Positions 4,693 through 56,290 of a stretch of DNA of 64,000 nucleotides are shown here, piece after piece. The translations under genes were made by a program, and so were the position numbers. Under the pieces are notes generated by a model. It was not told the origin of the DNA, searched no databases, and saw nothing but the letters and a program-made list of their open reading frames with translations. Source of the stretch: an uncultured Candidatus Saccharibacteria bacterium (lineage in GTDB: Bacteria; Patescibacteriota; Minisyncoccia; Phycocordibacterales; UBA9973); the NCBI GenBank assembly GCA_964625065.1, contig CAZUZL010000001.1, positions 40,132 through 104,131 of the forward strand, given 5' to 3'. The stretch's first letter is position 1; every line of letters begins with the position of its first letter.

Positions 4693-5138
4693 ATATGTAA
4701 CTATACCAAAGAAAAATCACTCCATAAAATATATACTAAAAAGGGCACGCAGATTTTTCCGCTAAAAAATCTCCTCAGAACTGCGCGCCGGTCGCGCTGG
4801 TAAGCCCCTTTTTAGCATACATTTTCTTCAGTGATAGCCAAGTTTAAATGCAAAAAACAAAATAGTTCTGTAAAAATGCCTGACGCAAGCCGACCGGGCG
4901 AGTCAGTAAAAAGAAATTAGTTTTTCTTTTTACCCGATTCACGAAGTGAAATTGCCGATGTGAGTGATAACGAACAGGCAATAGGAATCAATTTTCAGCA
5001 AGAAAATGTCGCGCTTAATGGACAATTGCGCGACGTGTTTGCTGGGGCAATCAAGCTTTTTTACAGAAGCTATTTTGTGATTTGCATGTATTTTACCTTT
5101 TTATACATATCCTGGAGGCCTTATGTTATACTGTATTT

Positions 5139-6560: not shown

Positions 6561-8003
6561 TTTTATAATCCCTATAACCCCATTCCCAAACAACATCACC
6601 GCCATTACCCCATACATACCCAACATTGCCCACAGTGGCAATGGGTAGTTTAGTACACCAAAAGGAACAGAGGCGAATAACATAATAACCCACAACACAA
6701 ACGTTAATAATATAGAAAGTGGAAATGCAAATAAAATAGATAAACTCGGTATAAAAAAACACAACACCAATAAAAATGTTAACCCCATAACCAGTGGCAT
6801 AAGTGGCAGTATTAATACATTGGCCGGTATTGAAACCAAAGACATAGCCCCCATAGTAAATAGTATCAGTGGCAGTACAGCAATATTTGTACCCACTGTT
6901 GTGGCAACCACGTCGCGTATACCAAACTTATCTGTTACCCATAAAAACTTGTGTAGTATTTTGGGTGTTATATATATCAGCCCTATAGTAGCTAAAACTG
7001 AAAGTTGAAATGAAACGTCGTACAGTATTGTAAATGGGTTCATTATACCCATTGCAATAATTGTTAATACCAACACCCTGCCTATATATGTTTTTCTACC
7101 GACAAGTTTTGCCAATATAACAATACCACCCATTATGCCCGCACGTATGGCAGTGGTAGAAGCACCGGTTAATATTACAAATAAAACTATACCAAATATT
7201 GAAACTATCCATGCTACTGTAACAGAAAATATTGCACCCAATGTTGCCAACATGGCTTCGACAACAATGGTAATGTTGTAGCCCGACAGGGCAATAATGT
7301 GTATAGTTCCGGAACGTACAAACTGGTCGCGCAAACCTGTTGTTAACCAGTCGCGCGAACCAACTAATATGCCACGAGCTAAGCCAGACTGCGGTTCGTG
7401 CAAATTGTTGTTTATTTGGTTTTCTATTTTATTCTTTAGTACTGCTAAACGTGCAGTAACATTCCACCTACCTGCTGGTGTGGTAGACAACACTTTTGGT
7501 TTGTCTAATGTTACATATACAAAGTCTTTTTTAAGATACGAAACATAGTCAAATACAGTGTCGTTAGAACCAGTAAAGTTTTCTGGGTATTGAAGTACGC
7601 CAGAAATTTGTACATGTTCACCCACCAACAAATTCCCGCTGTTTATTTTTACTAATACTCGAAATCTTTCACCGACGGGTTGTACTAAAACAGTTTGTAT
7701 ATTATTTTTACCTTCAGCAGTTACTACCCTGCCTGATAATGTTACATTTTTATTTATTGCATCCGTGTACAGAACAGGTATTTTTGGCATGCGCATATAC
7801 GAAACACCATAGCCAAGTAAAATAGACACCACTAAAACGAACGTTAAACCAAAAACTTTTTTAGAAAACTTACCTAAAAACAAAATACAAACCAGACAAA
7901 TAAAAACACCGGCAACTAGGCCGTATGTGTTCTGTTGTGCTGTAAATAAAATAATACCAACTACTGCGCCGAAACTTGTTCCATAAAACAAATTGTCATC
8001 CAT
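6558..8003 (-). CDS. comEC: DNA internalization competence protein ComEC/Rec2 (DUF4131 + competence channel domain, no lactamase domain)
   Basis: Polytopic membrane protein with ComEC competence-domain motifs (…TAIRAGIMGGIVILAKL…). The ORF-track GTG start at 8027 (MALPISNGM) lies inside a repeat; the ATG at 8001-8003 (MDDNLFYG) is preferred. Confidence 0.8.
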   Translation of the reverse strand: MDDNLFYGTSFGAVVGIILFTAQQNTYGLVAGVFICLVCILFLGKFSKKVFGLTFVLVVSILLGYGVSYMRMPKIPVLYTDAINKNVTLSGRVVTAEGKNNIQTVLVQPVGERFRVLVKINSGNLLVGEHVQISGVLQYPENFTGSNDTVFDYVSYLKKDFVYVTLDKPKVLSTTPAGRWNVTARLAVLKNKIENQINNNLHEPQSGLARGILVGSRDWLTTGLRDQFVRSGTIHIIALSGYNITIVVEAMLATLGAIFSVTVAWIVSIFGIVLFVILTGASTTAIRAGIMGGIVILAKLVGRKTYIGRVLVLTIIAMGIMNPFTILYDVSFQLSVLATIGLIYITPKILHKFLWVTDKFGIRDVVATTVGTNIAVLPLILFTMGAMSLVSIPANVLILPLMPLVMGLTFLLVLCFFIPSLSILFAFPLSILLTFVLWVIMLFASVPFGVLNYPLPLWAMLGMYGVMAVMLFGNGVIGIIK

Positions 8004-8191
8004 CCCGTTAGAGATAGGAAGTGCCACATTACAATATATGGAACTTCCTATAATTAGATAATTTATAATATTTCGACCATACTACTAGACCCTACAGGCA
8101 CTTCCGTAATATATTTGATTATATTTACATATTAACATAATTTATTTCTTTATTATATTAAGACAAAATAACATCTGTTATCTCAACGGGA
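8001..8191. mobile_element. 191-bp TIR-bounded repeat element (copy A); its terminal CAT is the comEC start codon
   Basis: Left arm catcccgttagagataggaagtgccac (8001-8027), inner partner ggcacttccgta (8097-8108), shared acatattaacata core, right arm atctcaacggga (8180-8191). Confidence 0.6.
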
Positions 8192-9729: not shown

Positions 9730-11466
9730 TTATATAGTAATGTCAACTATACGTAAGCGCATTTCTACCTTGCCCATATAACGCGATTCTTCTATATATG
9801 CAGACATATCTATATACATACCTGGTACCAGTTTTTGTTCAAAATCATTCGTAGTTTTGAAAAATGCTATGGCCTTTATCTTTGTTGTTTTTCCGTCATT
9901 GTTATGTGAAACAACTATTTCTAAGTGGTTTTTGTCTTTACCAAATTCCTTTGCTGTTTCTATTAATACACGTTTAAATACGAATAAAGGTTTTTCATTT
10001 GCCACACCAAATGGTGCAAAGTTTTGTATTGCACGATAGACTTCGTTTGTAACTATAGGTAATGTAACTTCTAGTGTTTGTGCACTATCTTTGTCAACAT
10101 TAACTTCAATTACAGCACTACTGTGCACACTGTTTAACACATCTGCCAGTGTATGTATTGCGTCATTACTAACTGAAAAACCTCCAGCACCCTCATGCCC
10201 ACCAAAGGCAACAAATGTGCCTGCCGGTGCAGCCGACATTATAGAAACAAGGTGGCACGTACCGTTAGAACGACATGAACCTTTTATAATTCCAAATTCG
10301 TCGCGTCCCCAAACAAAAACAGTTTTGTCATGTTCGTCTACAATTTTCGATGCAACCAAACCCAGCACACCAATGTTCCAGTTTGGGTTACCTATTACAA
10401 TAACAGGCTGTTCTTCTTTTTGTTTTAAAACTTTTTTTACCTCCTTCATGATAGATGCAACTTTTGTTTTTCTTTCTGTGTTTAAACCTTCTAAGTGTGT
10501 TGAAAATTCTACCGCTTCCTTAGCGTTTTTTGTTTTAAGTAATTTAAATGCAGTCATGGGCGTGTCCATGCGTGACGCAGCATTTAGTCGTGGTGCCAAT
10601 GTAAAAGTTACATCATCTTCAACTATGTGTGCCATGTCTACACCGGCTTTTTGTAATAGTAGTTGCAAGCCAGGTCGGCGAGTTTTCTTTAAAACCTGCA
10701 AACCATAGTACGCCAGTGTTCTGTTTTCCTTCAGTAGTGGTACCATGTCTGACAATGTTGCAATGGCCACCATGTCTAGCAACCATTTTTCCCACCCCAC
10801 GGGTACATTATATTCTGCACGGTATTTATCTAGGAAACCACGAACAAAAGTAAATATTACACCAGAACCACACAACATGTCGTCTGGGTAATTGTTACCA
10901 GTTTGTTTTGGGTTTATAACAGCATATGCATCTGGAATAATTTGTGTGTCTTTATTCTTCTTATCTTTAAGTATTTTCTCTAATGGCAAATGGTGGTCGG
11001 TAATGATTAAATCAATACCCTTTTCTTTACAGTACTTAGCTTGGTCGACAGCGGTAATACCAACATCAATTGTTATAATCAATGTCACCCCCTGACTAAC
11101 CAAACTATCTACAGCAGGTATATGTAAACCGTAACCTTCTTTGTGTCTGTCAGGAATATAAACAACATAATTTGTAAAACCAATAATGTCGAACATATCA
11201 GACAGTACAACTGCACCCGGTATACCGTCGCAGTCGTAGTCTGCATATATGGCAATTTTCTCGCCTTTTGCTATAGCGTTATAAACCCGTTCTACAGATT
11301 TATCCATGTCCTTCATATCTGTTGGGTTGCCTATATTTGTATATTGTGGGTGCAAAAAATCGTCAGCATCAATAGCCGACAAACCCCGCATAGTTAACAA
11401 ATGTTCCACCACTTCGTTCATGCACATTAGTCTACCATGGGGCATAAGTAATACAAAAATAGACAA
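9730..11466 (-). CDS. recJ: Single-stranded-DNA-specific exonuclease RecJ
   Basis: DHH/DHHA1 phosphoesterase motifs (DYDCDGI, ITDHH) in a ~570 aa protein; start possibly at MNEVVEH (11421). Confidence 0.8.
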   Translation of the reverse strand: MSIFVLLMPHGRLMCMNEVVEHLLTMRGLSAIDADDFLHPQYTNIGNPTDMKDMDKSVERVYNAIAKGEKIAIYADYDCDGIPGAVVLSDMFDIIGFTNYVVYIPDRHKEGYGLHIPAVDSLVSQGVTLIITIDVGITAVDQAKYCKEKGIDLIITDHHLPLEKILKDKKNKDTQIIPDAYAVINPKQTGNNYPDDMLCGSGVIFTFVRGFLDKYRAEYNVPVGWEKWLLDMVAIATLSDMVPLLKENRTLAYYGLQVLKKTRRPGLQLLLQKAGVDMAHIVEDDVTFTLAPRLNAASRMDTPMTAFKLLKTKNAKEAVEFSTHLEGLNTERKTKVASIMKEVKKVLKQKEEQPVIVIGNPNWNIGVLGLVASKIVDEHDKTVFVWGRDEFGIIKGSCRSNGTCHLVSIMSAAPAGTFVAFGGHEGAGGFSVSNDAIHTLADVLNSVHSSAVIEVNVDKDSAQTLEVTLPIVTNEVYRAIQNFAPFGVANEKPLFVFKRVLIETAKEFGKDKNHLEIVVSHNNDGKTTKIKAIAFFKTTNDFEQKLVPGMYIDMSAYIEESRYMGKVEMRLRIVDITI

Positions 11467-12321: not shown

Positions 12322-13032
12322 TTAAAATGTATTAGAACTTAGTACATTTATAATTTCAATGGCCAGAGGTTCTCTTTCGTATTTCAAACTTTTTTGAAGT
12401 TTATCCATTATATCCCTAGAAGGAATTGCTAATTTTGATATTTCAGAAATAAATACAAACTGCTCTTCGGTTATTTCCGGTGGCAGACGTTTTATTAATT
12501 TAAGAATCTTTACGTCTTCTAAGTTATTTGCAGATAATTTTAAAAAATCAAGCTGATCTTTAATTAAAACCAAATTATCTATTAGAGTATCGATGGTATC
12601 TGTAGTTTTCTGTTTTATAGGACCTGCTGGAAAATTACCTAATATCTTAAAATATTCAGGAACAACTTTTTTAAATGAAGTATATTTGTAGTTTTTATTT
12701 CCTTCAATTAGAATTTGTTTTTCAACATTTTCTATAACTTCTTTCATTATAATAATTATTGTATTATTATAATTTAAAAGACGAAATAAATACTTTTTTC
12801 TTAAGCTTTTAAAGTAACGAGGAATTTTCGGAAGAATATAAACCTGGACAACTAAATAGATTGATAAGATCAAAATTAAAGTTATTATTGATTTTTGGTA
12901 ATAATTCACCAAAAACACTATTAGGCCTACTATGAATACAATAAGTGGGTAAAGAATGAATAATGGATAAAACGTAGAATTAGTACCCTCATTAATGGCC
13001 TTTTGAGATAGGTAAGATTTAGATTGTGTCAT
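12322..13032 (-). CDS. Hypothetical membrane protein
   Basis: 236 aa with two N-terminal TM helices; extremely AT-rich coding sequence. Confidence 0.4.
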   Translation of the reverse strand: MTQSKSYLSQKAINEGTNSTFYPLFILYPLIVFIVGLIVFLVNYYQKSIITLILILSIYLVVQVYILPKIPRYFKSLRKKYLFRLLNYNNTIIIIMKEVIENVEKQILIEGNKNYKYTSFKKVVPEYFKILGNFPAGPIKQKTTDTIDTLIDNLVLIKDQLDFLKLSANNLEDVKILKLIKRLPPEITEEQFVFISEISKLAIPSRDIMDKLQKSLKYEREPLAIEIINVLSSNTF

Positions 13033-34263: not shown

Positions 34264-34303
34264 ATGGGTATAATCTAGCATAAAAAATGGGTATAATAAA
34301 GAA

Positions 34304-34733
34304 ATGAGAAACCCCCACTCGGCCTCCCCCTTATCAAGGGGAGGAGAAAAACATCCATTTATACCATATAAAAAAGAACTCCCTGAAAAAGCACGAGAGT
34401 TAAGAAATAATGTAACAAAGGCAGAAGAAAAATTATGGCATGAAGTTTTAAGAAACAAGCAATTTTTAGGATTTAGATTTGTGCGACAAAAGCCATTGAA
34501 ATATTTTATTGCAGATTTTTATTGTGCCAAACTTATGCTTGTTATAGAAGTGGATGGTAGTGTACACAACAAAATAAAAGAACGAGATGCTGAGAGAACA
34601 GAAATATTAAAAGGAATACATAATATAAAAGTGGTTCGATATACAAATGAAAATATTCTAAAAAGAATTGGCTGGGTTAAAGAAAGTTTAGAAAAAGAAA
34701 TTATTCAAAGAGAAACTGAACTTTCACAATAAG
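34304..34733 (+). CDS. DUF559 (Vsr-like endonuclease fold) protein
   Basis: EKLWHEVLRNKQFLGFRFVRQKP...ADFYCAKLMLVIEVDG...ERDAERTEILKGIHNIKVVRY is a typical DUF559 signature. Confidence 0.7.
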
Positions 34734-34780
34734 CAGTTAAATTCCCTCCCTTGATAAGGGGAGGGTTAGGGTGGGGTTTC
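34304..34780. mobile_element. About 480-bp cassette: DUF559 ORF bracketed by ~37-bp imperfect terminal inverted repeats
   Basis: IR-L gaaacccccactcggcctcccccttatcaaggggagg (34308-34344) against the reverse complement of IR-R ccctcccttgataaggggagggttagggtggggtttc (34744-34780); each arm also holds a CCCCTT..AAGGGG palindrome. Confidence 0.55.
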
Positions 34781-34901
34781 TTGTTATTTTGCATACATAT
34801 ATAATGTATGCTATAGTCCATGTATTACCTGTCACTTCTGTGCCAGGCATTTTTATTAAAAATTAAATAATGGGGAGTTTCCCTAAAAACTAAATAAATA
34901 T

Positions 34902-37540: not shown

Positions 37541-37780
37541 ATGACTACAACAATACAAAAATGGGGTAATAGTTTAGGGGTACGAATTCCTAAAAACATA
37601 GCTACTAATATGGGTCTAAAGGCTGGTAGTGGTGTTTTTGTTTCTGAAAAAGACGGAATTATGATTTTAGAGAAAAAATCAAAATTACTGAATCTTAAAA
37701 AAGCTATGAAAGACTACACACCTGAAAATTACCACCAAGAAGTCGACTGGGGTACCCCTGTCGGTAAAGAAATATGGTAA
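37541..37780 (+). CDS. mazE: MazE/PemI-family antitoxin (AbrB/SpoVT-type DNA-binding domain)
   Basis: MTTTIQKWGNSLGVRIPK swapped-hairpin motif. Confidence 0.8.
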   Translation: MTTTIQKWGNSLGVRIPKNIATNMGLKAGSGVFVSEKDGIMILEKKSKLLNLKKAMKDYTPENYHQEVDWGTPVGKEIW

Positions 37781-38109
37781 AAAAATATATTCCAAAACAG
37801 GGTGACATTATTCTGATATCTTTTGACCCAACAGTCGGACATGAACAACGCGGTAGTCGCCCAGCTATTGTTGTGTCTGCCACAGAGTACAACACTCGTA
37901 CTGGTATGATGCTTGTGTGTCCAGTAACATCTAAGGGTAAAGGTTATATTTTTGAAGTAAAAATTAAAGGAAATAAAATAAACGGGTTTATATTAGTAGA
38001 CCAAATTCGTTCAATGGACTGGTTCGCACGAAAACCAAAATTTGTAGAGAAATGCAAGACAGAAGAACTTTCACAAATCAAACTACTAATAGCAAGTTTA
38101 GTACAATAA
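37774..38109 (+). CDS. mazF: MazF/PemK-family endoribonuclease toxin
   Basis: YIPKQGDIILISFDPTVGHEQRGSRPAIVVS motif; 7-nt overlap with mazE. Confidence 0.85.
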   Translation: MVKKYIPKQGDIILISFDPTVGHEQRGSRPAIVVSATEYNTRTGMMLVCPVTSKGKGYIFEVKIKGNKINGFILVDQIRSMDWFARKPKFVEKCKTEELSQIKLLIASLVQ

Positions 38110-38183: not shown

Positions 38184-39269
38184 ATGTCAAAAGAAATAAA
38201 ACCCATAAAAACAGCAGTGGAAAAACAACCAGGCAGTAACGTAGAAGTCAAAGTAACACTTGCTTGGGCTGACGTTGCTAGTTATAAAGACGCAGTTATG
38301 TTGTCTATTCAGAAAGACTACGAAGCCGACGGTTTCCGTAAAGGCAATGTGCCTATTGCAACTATAGAGAAAAACGTTTCTGCTTCTCTTGTAAACGAAA
38401 TGATGGCCGAAGAAGCCCTAAACGATATATACCCTACTATACTAAAAGACAACAACATTGACGCTCTTGGACGACCTGAAGTTATATTTACAAAACTAGC
38501 CGATGGTAACGATGTAGAATGCACCATTAAAACTGCGGTATACCCAGAATTTACACTACCTGATTACAAAAAAATTGCTAAGACTGTTGTAAAAGAAGTT
38601 GTAGAACCAAAAGAAGGCTTTGCAGCTACAGACGAAGAAGTAACACAAGCATTCAAAGAACTGCAACATATGCGCGCCCACCAAGAAATGCACAAGGAAG
38701 GTGGCCACGATGAACACGACCACAACCATGCACCGATAGATGAAAAAGACTACCCTGAAGTAAACGAAGCATTTGCAGGAAGTTTCGGTTTCGAAGACTT
38801 AGAAAAAATGCGTGAAAAAGTTCGCGAAAATCTTAAGAAAGAAAAAGAACAAAAACACTCAGAGAAAAAGCGTTTAGCTATAGTTGAAAAAGTTATCGAA
38901 GAAACAACCATCGACATACCACAATCAATAATAGACACTGAACTAGACCAAATGGTAGCCCGCATGCGCCACGATATACAAATGATGGGTATGGTATTCG
39001 ACGACTACCTAGTGCACCTGAAGAAAACAGAAGCCGAACTACGCACAGACTACACACCAGACGCAATAAAACGTGCAAAACTGAACTTTATCGTAGAAAA
39101 ACTAGCATTGTCTGAAAACCTTAAACCAACAGACGAAGAAACAGAAAAAGAAATCCAAAAAATAATGGAAGCCTACCCCGACGCAGACCGTACCAGTGCA
39201 ACCATGTACATAACAACAACACTGACAAACCAAAAAGTTTTTGACTTCCTAGAAAAATCAGCGCAGTAG
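38184..39269 (+). CDS. tig: Trigger factor
   Basis: N-terminal ribosome-binding domain GFRKGNVP; ~360 aa with an acidic/His-rich insert; start at MSKEIKPI. Confidence 0.8.
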   Translation: MSKEIKPIKTAVEKQPGSNVEVKVTLAWADVASYKDAVMLSIQKDYEADGFRKGNVPIATIEKNVSASLVNEMMAEEALNDIYPTILKDNNIDALGRPEVIFTKLADGNDVECTIKTAVYPEFTLPDYKKIAKTVVKEVVEPKEGFAATDEEVTQAFKELQHMRAHQEMHKEGGHDEHDHNHAPIDEKDYPEVNEAFAGSFGFEDLEKMREKVRENLKKEKEQKHSEKKRLAIVEKVIEETTIDIPQSIIDTELDQMVARMRHDIQMMGMVFDDYLVHLKKTEAELRTDYTPDAIKRAKLNFIVEKLALSENLKPTDEETEKEIQKIMEAYPDADRTSATMYITTTLTNQKVFDFLEKSAQ

Positions 39270-39280
39270 ATTATAGAAAT

Positions 39281-39308
39281 AAAAACTCCCTTAGGGGGTG
39301 TTTTTATT
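39281..39308 (+). terminator. Intrinsic terminator
   Basis: aaaaactcccttagggggtgttttt. Confidence 0.55.
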
Positions 39309-39311
39309 TCC

Positions 39312-39490
39312 CCTACTTGTGGAGGAGGTGAGCTTGTGGGTAGGGACCCGTAAGTGCAAGACCTTGAGTATCTGTAGCTAAGATGCGAAAGGTGTACAGC
39401 TTCAGTAAGAAGTGGCACTCCTGTGACGGGGTGGTGATTTACATGATTAGTCACCACCTCCCCCTACGGGTACTCCTCCTCAACAAGGAG
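39312..39490 (+). ncRNA. GC-rich structured element of unknown family, closed by a ~13-bp helix
   Basis: 5' cttgtggaggagg pairs with 3' cctcctcaacaag; internal ggtggtga/tcaccacc hairpin; direct repeat of cccctac; alternative pairing of cctcctc with a downstream ggaggag; sits between tig and clpP. Confidence 0.3.
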
Positions 39491-39537
39491 GAGATTAACA
39501 ACATTGAAAATTTCTTAAATAATGCTACTATATAGCC

Positions 39538-40122
39538 ATGTTAATACCAACCGTAATTGAAAAAACCCCTAATGGCGAACGTGCATACGACATATATTCA
39601 CGCCTTTTAAATGAACGTATAATATTCCTAACTGGTGAAATAAACGACGCAGTAGCAAACACTGTTATTGCCCAGTTGCTGTTTCTAGAACATTCAGATG
39701 CCAAGAAAGACATTTCTTTCTACATCAACAGCCCAGGGGGTTCGGTGCATTCAGGTCTAGCTATACTAGACACAATGAACCACATCAAATGTGACGTATC
39801 TACTGTATGTGTTGGTATAGCTGCATCTATGGGCGCTATGATACTGTCTGCTGGTACAAAAGGCAAGAGATTTGCATTACCTAATTCTGAAATCATGATA
39901 CACCAACCAATAGCAGGTGTAGAAGGCCAGGCTTCAGACATAGCAATAACCGCTAAAAACATATTACGTGCCCGTGAAAACCTATACCAGATACTTTCTA
40001 AAAACACCGGCAAACCAGTTTCGCAAATAGAAAAAGACGGTGACCGCGACTACTGGATGACATCCAAAGAAGCAAAAGCTTACGGTATAATAGACGAAGT
40101 AATGACAAAAAAGTCTAAATAG
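39538..40122 (+). CDS. clpP: ATP-dependent Clp protease proteolytic subunit
   Basis: INSPGGSV...VGIAASMGA...MIHQP, the Ser-His-Asp triad context. Confidence 0.93.
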
Positions 40123-47001: not shown

Positions 47002-47409
47002 CTATAATATCAAATCTTCGTACATTACTACCCTACCGGTTTTGTTTTCCATATCTAGGTACGCACATGCCAAGTCTATATATACCTTTGTTTTATAAGA
47101 CACTTTTCGTTCTAGCAGGTATGTTTCTATGGTGCGTAGCATTTTCCGTGCCTTCATAGGGTGCATGTTTTGGGCTGGGTCGTAACGCATGTATTTAACT
47201 TGAGCCAAATCCCCCACTTTTATGGACTTAACTTCTATAAAATGTATATTGTCGGGTCCATTTGTTACACGAGTAACAATGTCTATCTCGCCCCACTTTT
47301 TAGTGTAGTTGCGTTCTAGTATTTCATGGCCGTGTTTCATGAGGAACGTACAAACTACGTCCTCTCCTATTTCTCCAGTCTTTTGTTTATCTGAAGTAAA
47401 AACCTTCAT
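47002..47409 (-). CDS. YraN-family (UPF0102) predicted endonuclease
   Basis: GEDVVCTFLMKHGHEILERNYTKKWGEIDIVTR...IHFIEVKS; start at MKVFTSD; the ORF-track extension MALPISNGM is repeat-derived. Confidence 0.7.
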   Translation of the reverse strand: MKVFTSDKQKTGEIGEDVVCTFLMKHGHEILERNYTKKWGEIDIVTRVTNGPDNIHFIEVKSIKVGDLAQVKYMRYDPAQNMHPMKARKMLRTIETYLLERKVSYKTKVYIDLACAYLDMENKTGRVVMYEDLIL

Positions 47410-47597
47410 CCCGTTAGAGATAGGAAGTGCCACTACATAACATAGAAAACATTTACTATTCTCGATTTTAATTATAATCTATTCGACTAATTACATATCT
47501 AGCACTTCCGTAGATTAATTCAGTATATATACATATTAACATATTACGAGTGCATGAAACATATAAGCAATTAAGCATCTATAATCTCTAACGGGAT
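47407..47597. mobile_element. 191-bp TIR-bounded repeat element (copy B); its terminal CAT is the yraN-like start codon
   Basis: The 27 nt catcccgttagagataggaagtgccac are identical to copy A; inner partner agcacttccgta (47501-47513); tacatattaacata core; right arm atctctaacgggat (47584-47597). Confidence 0.6.
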
Positions 47598-47989
47598 TCA
47601 CTACTTAACTTCAAAATGTTTCATGAATAACACAAATGTCCGTTTCAGTACCAAAATGATCGAATTCCACTAAAGTGTGCCACGTGAAACATCTTTATGG
47701 CTATATCTAACTAATATAATATGTATTCTAATGTGTATTTTATAAATACCCTTATTTTTATAGGTATTTTAGATTTTTGGGGTATAGTATGACATTTTTT
47801 TGACATGTCTGTATACTGTCTTTTATAAACAATATACACAGACTTATCCACACTTATACACAGTTTTCTATATAAAATATAGGTTTTAATGAATATAAAA
47901 GACGATTCTTACAAGAATTGTGTCGCGCAATGTCCTTTGAAGCGCGACCCGTCAAAAAAGTCTTTAATAAAAAGGGCAGAAAAAAGAGA

Positions 47990-48420
47990 GGGGGGCAAAA
48001 GGGGAATCGGTTGCGATTTTATAACAACAGGGAATCGCCACCTACCGTGGCGAGTGCTTTGAACAAAAAGGGGAATCGGCCACGGTTTGCTGGTATTAGA
48101 AATGCGGAATGGGGATCGGCTTCGCCTCTCACCTCGTCAGTCACTCGGTTCGGGCTAGCCACCGCCTCGCACCCACACTGCTGTGTGGGACCCGCTCCGG
48201 CGTCCGATTCAGAATAACAGGGAATCGCCACCTACCGTGGCGGGTGCTTTTAGTAACAATAGGGAATCGGCCACGATTTGCTGACATTTTTCATCACAAG
48301 TTCGAAAAATACCTAGCAATCCCGGCCCGGACTCGGCGACAAGCATTCCTTGTTACACAGGAATCTTGTATACCGCCTCCGTCTTCCGATTCCCCTATTA
48401 CGCATAAAATAAAATCGCCC
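47990..48420. repeat. GC-rich non-coding block of direct repeats derived from the 3' end of tRNA-Gly(GCC)
   Basis: A composite ~70-bp unit occurs twice (48027-48094 and 48217-48288); core gggaatcgg occurs at least 7 times in gene orientation and once inverted (48395-48413); hairpins cgccac-ctacc-gtggcg and cccacac-tgctg-tgtggg. Confidence 0.55.
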
Positions 48421-48450
48421 GAAGGTATACTTCGGGGTCATTTATTTTTG

Positions 48451-48521
48451 TGCGGAATAGGGGAATCGGACCCCTGTCTCATCCTTGGCAAGGACGTGTT
48501 CTACCACTGAACCAATTCCGC
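48451..48521 (-). tRNA. tRNA-Gly (anticodon GCC), no encoded CCA
   Basis: Acceptor GCGGAAU/AUUCCGC, D-loop AGUGGUA, anticodon loop UUGCCAA; the T-loop UCCGAUU carries an unusual C55; a hairpin cccgaag-uauac-cuucggg plus U-run follows the 3' end. Confidence 0.75.
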
Positions 48522-54299: not shown

Positions 54300-54355
54300 A
54301 ATAAAAGAACCTCGTTAAAACGAGGTTCTTTTATTTTCTATGGTATAATACACAT

Positions 54356-54862
54356 ATGACAGTAATAAAACAAAAAGAACAACGTGTGGGTATATTTATA
54401 GATGCACAGAACATGTACCACAGCGCTAAAAACCTTTACCACCGCAAAGTAAACTTTGCCGCCATTATGCGTGAAGCGTTGGCTGGCCGTAAACTGGTAC
54501 GCGCCATTGCATATGTTATAACTTCAGATTCAGGTGAAGAAAAAAACTTTTTTGATGCACTTATAAAGTCTGGTATAGAAACTAAAACCAAAGACTTACA
54601 AACTTTCTACGGCGGTGCTAAAAAAGCCGACTGGGACGTGGGTCTAGCAGTAGACGCTATTAAAATGGCACCACGTCTAGATGCAATAGTTATAATTTCA
54701 GGCGACGGAGACTTTGTACCCCTAGTAGAATACTTAAAAACTATGACACAGGTAGAGGCTATGTCTTTTGGTAAATCTACATCTAGTAAACTTATAGAAT
54801 CTGTAGACGACTTTATAGATATGTCTCTAACACCTAAAAAATATTTGATAGGCATGAAGTAG
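54356..54862 (+). CDS. NYN-domain (LabA-like) protein, predicted RNase
   Basis: VGIFIDAQNMY...DVGLAVDAI...IISGDGDFVPLV motifs. Confidence 0.75.
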   Translation: MTVIKQKEQRVGIFIDAQNMYHSAKNLYHRKVNFAAIMREALAGRKLVRAIAYVITSDSGEEKNFFDALIKSGIETKTKDLQTFYGGAKKADWDVGLAVDAIKMAPRLDAIVIISGDGDFVPLVEYLKTMTQVEAMSFGKSTSSKLIESVDDFIDMSLTPKKYLIGMK

Positions 54863-56215: not shown

Positions 56216-56258
56216 TCGAATATCAATGGACATCATCCGACATGATTTTTGAGAAAAT

Positions 56259-56290
56259 CAAAAGCGACACATTGGTGTCGCTTTTTATTT
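56259..56290 (+). terminator. Intrinsic terminator
   Basis: aaaagcgacacattggtgtcgctttttattt. Confidence 0.6.

Follow-up and report, generated by a model that had tools for sequence, protein, structure and literature searches.

A strain-specific structured element in the tig-clpP spacer of a Patescibacteria genome

Genes and predicted signals at the junction

The element described here lies between the genes for trigger factor (tig) and ClpP in a Patescibacteria (CPR) genome, of which a stretch of 64 kb (64,000 nucleotides, referred to as the window) was analyzed. Its nearest relatives in public data are MAGs that carry the labels Nomurabacteria, Minisyncoccia and Saccharibacteria. Both flanking genes had been named from the letters alone, and protein family matches bear this out (PF05697/PF05698 for tig, PF00574 for clpP). 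The features of the junction, all on the plus strand, are the following:

38184-39269, +: tig (trigger factor), 361 aa (open reading frame list; homologs of 361 aa with PF05697/PF05698)
39285-39309, +: predicted intrinsic terminator of tig, stem-loop at 39285-39299 followed by a T-run (terminator scan)
39310-39497, +: structured GC-rich element of ~188 nt (fold, z-score, helix table, sliding-window rank)
39309-39328, +: closing inverted repeat, 5' arm, includes CTTGTGGAGGAGG (pairing search, helix table)
39329-39410, +: internal 82-nt segment, missing in relative L003 (pairwise alignment, mismatch map)
39332-39340, +: second helix, 5' strand, pairs with 39463-39471 over 9 bp including 4 G-U
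39430-39458, +: hairpin GGTGGTGA-loop(13)-TCACCACC (helix table; identical in L003)
39475-39494, +: closing inverted repeat, 3' arm (pairing search, helix table)
39504-39531, +: predicted clpP promoter, TTGAAA, 16-nt spacer and TACTAT after TG (promoter scan)
39538-40122, +: clpP, 194 aa (open reading frame list; PF00574)

The terminator and promoter calls are consensus matches in AT-rich DNA and count as predictions only. Candidate promoters were found by the scan at 39495-39531, downstream of the element. The start of clpP reads TGcTACTAT, six nucleotides and then ATG, so that the end of the -10 hexamer is 6 nt away from the start codon, which is a leaderless arrangement. The same pattern recurs in the window: a TAnnnT hexamer, often TG-extended, is located 6-7 nt before the ATG in 21 of 50 long open reading frames against 4.9% of other ATGs (P = 5e-15), and an SD-like motif is seen in one of 50 genes. 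Judged by these counts, the genome appears to be nearly all leaderless and SD-free. The earlier remark that clpP has no obvious SD in front of its ATG is true, but it holds genome-wide; an absent SD is therefore normal here. Likewise, since the SD is apparently not used in this genome, the GGAGG runs of the element would not be ribosome-binding sites and sequestration of an SD would have no target. This is a caution for genome scans, in which GGAGG "switches" and "missing SDs" are meaningless where initiation is not SD-led. A literature search on MITEs or leaderless translation in Patescibacteria yielded nothing relevant.

Further leaderless-type starts are present at 39523-39540, 34812-34832 and 54340-54358. 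Upstream of nusA (34812-34900), about 75 nt separate such a promoter (TGCTATAGT) from the nusA ATG; they contain a hairpin and a T-run (CCTGTCACTTCTGTGCCAGGCATTTTT) and may form a leader of the attenuator kind.

With the terminator on its left and the promoter on its right, the element would lie outside both predicted transcription units, tig as well as clpP. For the same reason it is probably not part of the clpP mRNA, which would leave no room for riboswitch or leader action. A leader or riboswitch-like regulator was nevertheless one of three options in the sequence-only reading: the 3' arm would alternate between the long-range closing helix and a local CTCCTCC/GGAGGAG hairpin and thereby switch clpP expression. 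The element is indeed situated directly upstream of clpP and the mutually exclusive helices exist. In addition, clpP is preceded by a conserved hairpin leader in other lineages, so clpP leaders do occur in the group. However, the predicted promoter comes after the element and would give a leaderless mRNA, no terminator or anti-terminator is located between the element and the ATG, and GGAGG sequestration has no target if SD motifs are essentially unused (1/50). The element is also unrelated to the clpP-upstream hairpin of the other lineages, finds no Rfam match even at E <= 10 and is absent from the closest and from more distant relatives, the closest having a 24-nt spacer or unrelated inserts instead. 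We consider a clpP leader highly improbable.

Anatomy and fold of the element

Every structural feature named in the sequence-only reading is present, and only the left boundary shifts: it had been put at 39312, which is 4 nt before the closing helix given with it, whereas the natural left edge derived from relatives is 39310, where L003 and L037 part directly after the T-run of the terminator. In the closing helix, CTTGTGGAGGAGG (39316-39328) and CCTCCTCAACAAG (39475-39487) pair at 12 of 13 positions, the exception being a single G/A mismatch at 39321/39482. Pairing runs outward to 39309/39494 and then comprises 17 bp with three single mismatches. The 8-bp inner hairpin (GGTGGTGA/TCACCACC) is found at 39430-39437/39451-39458, and the direct repeat CCCCTAC at 39310-39316 and 39461-39467. 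The alternative pairing of the 3' arm exists as well, as a perfect 7-bp local hairpin (CTCCTCC-TCAACAA-GGAGGAG, 39473-39493). The second helix is rich in G-U pairs and is therefore formed only by RNA of the plus strand.

The plus strand folds with an MFE of -83.6 kcal/mol, compared to -59.7 +/- 4.0 for 200 dinucleotide shuffles (z = -5.97). This is the lowest MFE among 3,362 sliding 190-nt windows covering both strands of the 64 kb, and only windows with tRNA genes equal it. GC content is 0.51 in the element against about 0.38 in the flanks and the genome. Given the z-score and the rank, the structured element is real and far from chance. Values for the minus strand are -69.8 kcal/mol and z = -3.5 (dinucleotide shuffles), and the mirrored structure on that strand reaches -68.2 kcal/mol (8 G-U pairs versus one C/A apposition).

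Based on the fold, it might be argued that the element is a functional structured RNA of the plus strand that is kept by selection, either in the tail of tig read-through transcripts (a 3'-UTR stabiliser or processing module) or as a strain-specific sRNA, the latter resembling the small-RNA option of the first reading. The z-score, the place at the top of the 3,362 windows at the level of tRNA loci and the GC content of 0.51 in a 0.38 genome all favor such an RNA. So do the advantage of the plus strand, which is about 14-15 kcal/mol with the G-U pairs concentrated in 39332-39340/39463-39471, and a C to T change in the 3' arm of the closing helix that keeps the pairing as a plus-strand G-U. A different motif with two hairpins, at 56223-56261, is located between a stop codon and a terminator; being inside a 3' UTR, it indicates that 3'-UTR RNA modules exist in this genome.

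Yet the element is positioned downstream of the tig terminator, and the terminator stem is maintained by compensatory change: it differs in L003 but still pairs (ACTCCC/GGGGGT versus ACACC/GGTGT). The L003-type terminator is common to L037 and L016. No promoter is predicted upstream of the element on either strand, and inspection of the 3' end on the plus strand reveals no T-run. Moreover, L003 gets by without 82 nt, among them one strand of the G-U-rich helix, and the closest relatives do without the element altogether. The preference for the plus strand itself should be read with care, as MFE prediction takes G-U pairs opportunistically in a G-rich strand and the element is known in only two sequence variants, too few for covariation. 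As for the small RNA in particular, the better fold on the plus strand stands against the lack of a predicted promoter on both strands and of a plus-strand terminator. We regard a functional RNA as doubtful on balance.

Spacer forms among relatives

Contigs were compared at the tig-clpP junction for a cluster of 14 close relatives, defined by a Tig protein that is at least 90% identical. The spacer takes at least six forms in relatives of this kind:

L011, L012: 24 nt, no element
L004-L006: the window element, identical over the part of the element on each Logan contig
L003: the window element minus 82 nt
L002, L010, L015: an unrelated inverted-repeat element of 110 nt
L001, L007, L014, L038: a different unrelated element, then a 5' stub of clpP with a hairpin
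L013: 5.7 kb of inserted genes on the reverse strand
L008, L009, L016, L037: other genes in the place of clpP

In the flanking coding DNA, the window and its close relatives are 88-96% identical, whereas the spacers are unalignable, with identity at random level. The element is thus polymorphic in presence: it occurs in the window, L003 and L004-L006 and not in L002, L010, L011, L012, L015 and others. L002 and L015, which are the closest relatives by their flanks, are without it. Among the 30+ loci compared, the element was found upstream of clpP in one other lineage only.

For more distant relatives (Tig 41-53% identical) the tig-clpP spacer is 17-32 nt in L018, L020, L021, L022 and L024; such short spacers are seen in most, not all, of them. 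Because the distant relatives mostly have 17-32-nt spacers, the compact junction is, on this sequence comparison, taken as the ancestral state and the long spacers as derived.

Variation of this kind is also seen elsewhere. In a more distant lineage, the spacers of L018 and L019 measure 27 and 332 nt, a second and independent presence/absence polymorphism; the L019 spacer contains a small reverse-strand open reading frame for a basic protein of ~50 aa that L018 does not have. An ENA contig of sample ERZ1426853 encodes a ClpP identical to that of the window with a tig-clpP spacer of only 111 nt, perhaps yet another variant or the window-type spacer with its site empty. A 157-nt deletion was considered as the source of this spacer and rejected, as no suitable direct repeats were found. 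Finally, Logan contigs break inside the element (L004:1, L005:1 and L006:2172, corresponding to ~39404-39436 of the window): the contigs of two sequencing runs begin at one same base, and the upstream contig ends 28 nt beyond this shared start. This reproducible break of the assembly graph could mean that a variant coexists or that the right half of the element also occurs in a second context.

A low-divergence tract shared with L003

Over 39301-39551, only 6 of 169 aligned positions differ between the window and L003 (about 96% identical), whereas identity outside this tract is about 84% upstream and about 77% downstream, and the ClpP proteins are just 69% identical. The predicted clpP promoter stretch is 100% identical. 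L003 has the element even though its flanks are more diverged than those of L002 and L015. These differences suggest that the element and the promoter were shared, as one cassette, more recently than their surroundings. The low divergence of the tract, together with the lack of the element in the relatives with the closest flanks, points to lateral exchange of element and promoter. Alternatively, purifying selection rather than recent exchange could account for the conservation between the window and L003, and about 96% identity despite diverged flanks is what a functional RNA would have in its favor.

Searches for RNA families, coding content and further copies

A covariance model search of the whole window with cmscan (Rfam 15, gathering score), which had been proposed as a check, yields only tRNAs and nothing at the element. 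At E <= 10 the locus returns only noise on the terminator, and ten related loci again give tRNAs only. ARAGORN finds no tRNA or tmRNA at the element. A housekeeping RNA (6S, SRP, RNase P, tmRNA) was rejected on these grounds, as neither program reports a match at the element, close relatives have an empty syntenic site or other sequence there, and L003 tolerates the 82-nt loss. By eye, a resemblance to the RNase P S-domain (GAAAGGUG ... GUAAGA) can be noticed; it was dismissed because Rfam gives no signal, the element is dispensable and the motifs are outside their expected structural context in the MFE structure.

The open reading frames of the element (50 aa on the plus strand, 94 aa on the minus strand and 15 aa after GGAGGAGG) do not match any Pfam family, and in L003 the 82-nt indel interrupts them. 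A coding remnant or a type I toxin was therefore discarded: Pfam is silent, the frames are not preserved in L003 and toxin-like hydrophobicity is lacking. A CIRCE or CtsR operator upstream of clpP was also considered, but although GGCACTC is like a CIRCE half-site, the second half is missing.

Mismatch-tolerant pattern searches and a repeat finder detected no second copy in the 64-kb window, and neither did blastn-short and nhmmer in 243 kb of window and relatives or one exact 23-mer in JGI metagenome contigs. Four exact k-mers gave a single chance match in IMG/VR, in a GC-rich coding region (L017), and blastn against phage and plasmid collections only a chance match of 25 nt. The sequence-only reading expected a MITE to be multi-copy, and in these searches of the window, the 243 kb, the JGI contigs, IMG/VR and the phage and plasmid collections no further copy was found. 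No target-site duplication was found: the flanks TTTATT\CCCC... and ...GGAGA\TTAAC (the backslash marking the edge) have no common direct repeat, and the direct repeats CCCCTAC and AGGAGG are both internal to the element. Nor did the compared loci offer a clean empty site set in the same flanking spacer. No transposase with matching ends was seen in the sequence of window and relatives.

Kinship with other hairpins of the clade was examined and rejected. The hairpins of a DUF559 cassette in the window (CCTCCCC-loop-GGGGAGG) share the design (C-run, AT loop, G-run) without sequence homology, and the 5' arm in L003 is a perfect hairpin of that type, so the likeness is a loose analogy. Matches to the clpP-stub hairpin and to the dispersed two-hairpin motif are short and at chance level.

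Comparison with known systems

Correia/NEMIS elements of Neisseria and ERIC/IRU elements of enterobacteria are bacterial MITEs that occur tens to hundreds of times in a genome; those of the Correia type carry an IHF site and are flanked by a duplicated TA target. Like these elements, the one described here is non-coding, falls in the range of 100-200 bp and has terminal inverted repeats that form a long hairpin. It is also located at an intergenic junction beside a terminator and a promoter, varies in size, with full-length forms next to forms shortened or expanded internally, and is present or absent between close strains. Unlike Correia and ERIC, it was found here in a single copy, and the whole spacer including the promoter is replaced rather than a conserved spacer being cleanly interrupted. 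Also, no target duplication as in Correia is seen.

Intergenic regulatory regions are reportedly switched horizontally between strains by recombination in E. coli and other species (Oren et al. 2014, PNAS). The locus is similar in that conserved flanking genes (88-96% nucleotide identity) enclose an unalignable spacer, the distribution does not follow flank similarity and the low-divergence tract covers exactly the spacer cassette, ending inside the 5' end of the downstream gene. Such switching concerns promoter regions generally, however, and leaves the GC-rich palindromic block unexplained.

The compact, GC-rich domain of several helices upstream of a gene, with its alternative pairings, also resembles the cis-regulatory riboswitches and leaders in Rfam. 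In contrast to those, it is located upstream of the predicted promoter, has no expression platform, is not conserved across orthologous loci and has no Rfam match. The spacer elements of L007 and L002 share its genomic slot, the design of an outer inverted repeat around internal hairpins and the strain-specific occurrence, but they have no sequence similarity to it, and its modules are not repeated elsewhere in the window.

A proposed insertion or replacement cassette

Overall, our preferred reading, to which we assign a probability of about 0.55, is that of a palindromic insertion cassette, non-coding and specific to the strain, by which an ancestral tig-clpP operon was split. The starting point would be a compact pair of genes with a spacer of 17-32 nt, probably co-transcribed. 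The element would then have been inserted at the junction or have replaced the spacer through recombination. With the terminator on the left and the leaderless-type promoter on the right, tig and clpP would now form two transcription units. The sequences directly show the anatomy, the position relative to the predicted signals, the absence or replacement in relatives and the tract of low divergence. We infer the transcript boundaries and the route of arrival from the predicted signals and the comparison of relatives; a lack of function is inferred likewise, and the element would be at most passenger DNA or reinforce the insulation between tig and clpP.

The MITE option of the sequence-only reading fits best of the three that it offered. 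It is supported by the inverted-repeat ends, the polymorphic presence, the internally deleted variant, the distribution that departs from flank similarity and the size of ~188 nt (below about 300 bp) without coding capacity, whereas dispersed copies were not found. The element therefore appears MITE-like in anatomy and would be at best a candidate member of a multi-copy family. The neighborhood of tig is prone to insertions, as the alaS-nusA junction and the region upstream of tig also vary between strains, and the other spacer elements of the clade are made with modules that also occur scattered through the window genome. The strand asymmetry speaks against the cassette, as a purely DNA-level element is not expected to fold better on the plus strand.

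The junction has hosted large insertions in sister strains, so the element might also be an inert remnant of foreign DNA with a higher GC content or of a larger insertion that was deleted (as the 5.7 kb in L013), immobile and without function. Its GC content is foreign to the genome and it is single-copy in all data searched, which is in line with this idea. Against it, the element has no similarity to the inserted genes of L013, L008 and L016 or to other compared sequence, has no protein-family signal and is better conserved than its flanks; moreover, the lowest-MFE fold in 64 kb and terminal inverted repeats of about 20 bp would be unexpected in a remnant. We judge this origin improbable.

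A bolder proposal, which we put forward with little confidence, is that the element belongs to a class, so far undescribed, of modular spacer cassettes built from hairpins in leaderless Patescibacteria, in which the block is a functional RNA of the plus strand. If true, cassettes of terminator, structured block and leaderless promoter would recombine between strains and rewire operons like tig-clpP, and the block on the plus strand could for example be a roadblock for read-through, an RNase target or a protein-binding platform.

Returning to the insertion cassette, the element would be a strain-specific structured spacer insert instead of a new clpP regulator, and as such has little import alone. 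Its value is that of an example: in a reduced genome that appears leaderless and SD-free, junctions of conserved genes turn over fast and are filled by differing hairpin-rich cassettes, one of which would split the conserved tig-clpP pair. Some side observations are perhaps worthier than the element itself, namely the leaderless architecture, the two-hairpin motif and the clpP-stub hairpin.

Other structured and mobile-looking features

The two-hairpin motif has copies in the window at 5003-5056, 56223-56261 and 47922-47948 (minus strand) and in L007 at 11120-11175 and 12411-12437 (minus strand). The first hairpin (GTCGCGy-TTCAATGGACATT-rCGCGAC) has a loop of 13 nt that is conserved, and the second (GATTTC-TGAG-GAAATC) precedes CAAG. 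The copies show covariation in both stems, and Rfam has no match. The copy at 56223 is located between the stop codon of a DksA/TraR-like gene and a terminator, and in L007 the motif fills the tig-clpP spacer.

The clpP stub is absent from the window. In several lineages whose Tig is 41-94% identical to that of the window, it repeats the initial 19 nt of clpP (ATGTTAATACCnACnGTAA) ahead of the gene. Next come CCCC, a hairpin of variable, covarying sequence, CTACGGGGCrAGAwGT, some 55 AT-rich nucleotides and finally the real clpP ATG. It was located at L007:11218-11340, L014:4315-4436, L026:4229-4358 and L028:3597-3726, as two tandem copies at L029:3712-3932 and also in L001, L030 and L038. Read as a short uORF, the stub gives MLIPTVTPE... 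and stops within the hairpin. A leader or attenuator is one possibility for it, a small insertion aimed at codon 6 of clpP another.

Between alaS and nusA, the region 34298-34790 contains a DUF559 endonuclease-like open reading frame (34304-34732, Pfam E = 4e-29). It is flanked by 48-nt inverted arms, each with a CCTCCCC-loop-GGGGAGG hairpin (34323-34344 and 34744-34765). L008 has only 32 nt between alaS and nusA and the L002-type strain 93 nt, and the DUF559 cassette is therefore an insertion. Just upstream of tig, a mazE/mazF (PemK) toxin-antitoxin pair (37541-38109) is present in the window and in L006. In L011, L013 and L007 it is absent, and a hypothetical gene of 183-189 aa is directly followed by tig.

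At 4845-5090 the window has an element of ~245 nt that is bounded by inverted repeats. It holds, in reverse orientation, the core of the spacer element seen in L002 (4877-4899, 96% over 23 nt) as well as the two-hairpin motif of the L007 spacer element, which suggests that the spacer elements of the clade are assembled modularly.

The region 47990-48470, GC-rich and beside tRNA-Gly(gcc), is among the most structured windows and has repeated units containing GGGAATCG. A 52-nt direct repeat is 85% identical (48018/48208), and a 43-nt palindrome overlaps the 3' half of the tRNA (48385-48470); the region looks like stacked integration remnants at a tRNA gene. A second dispersed repeat family, which begins with CATCCCGTTAGAGATAGGAAGTGCCAC, is 83-87% identical between 8001-8139 and 47407-47543, and one copy is bounded by 30-nt inverted arms (47392-47421/47584-47613).
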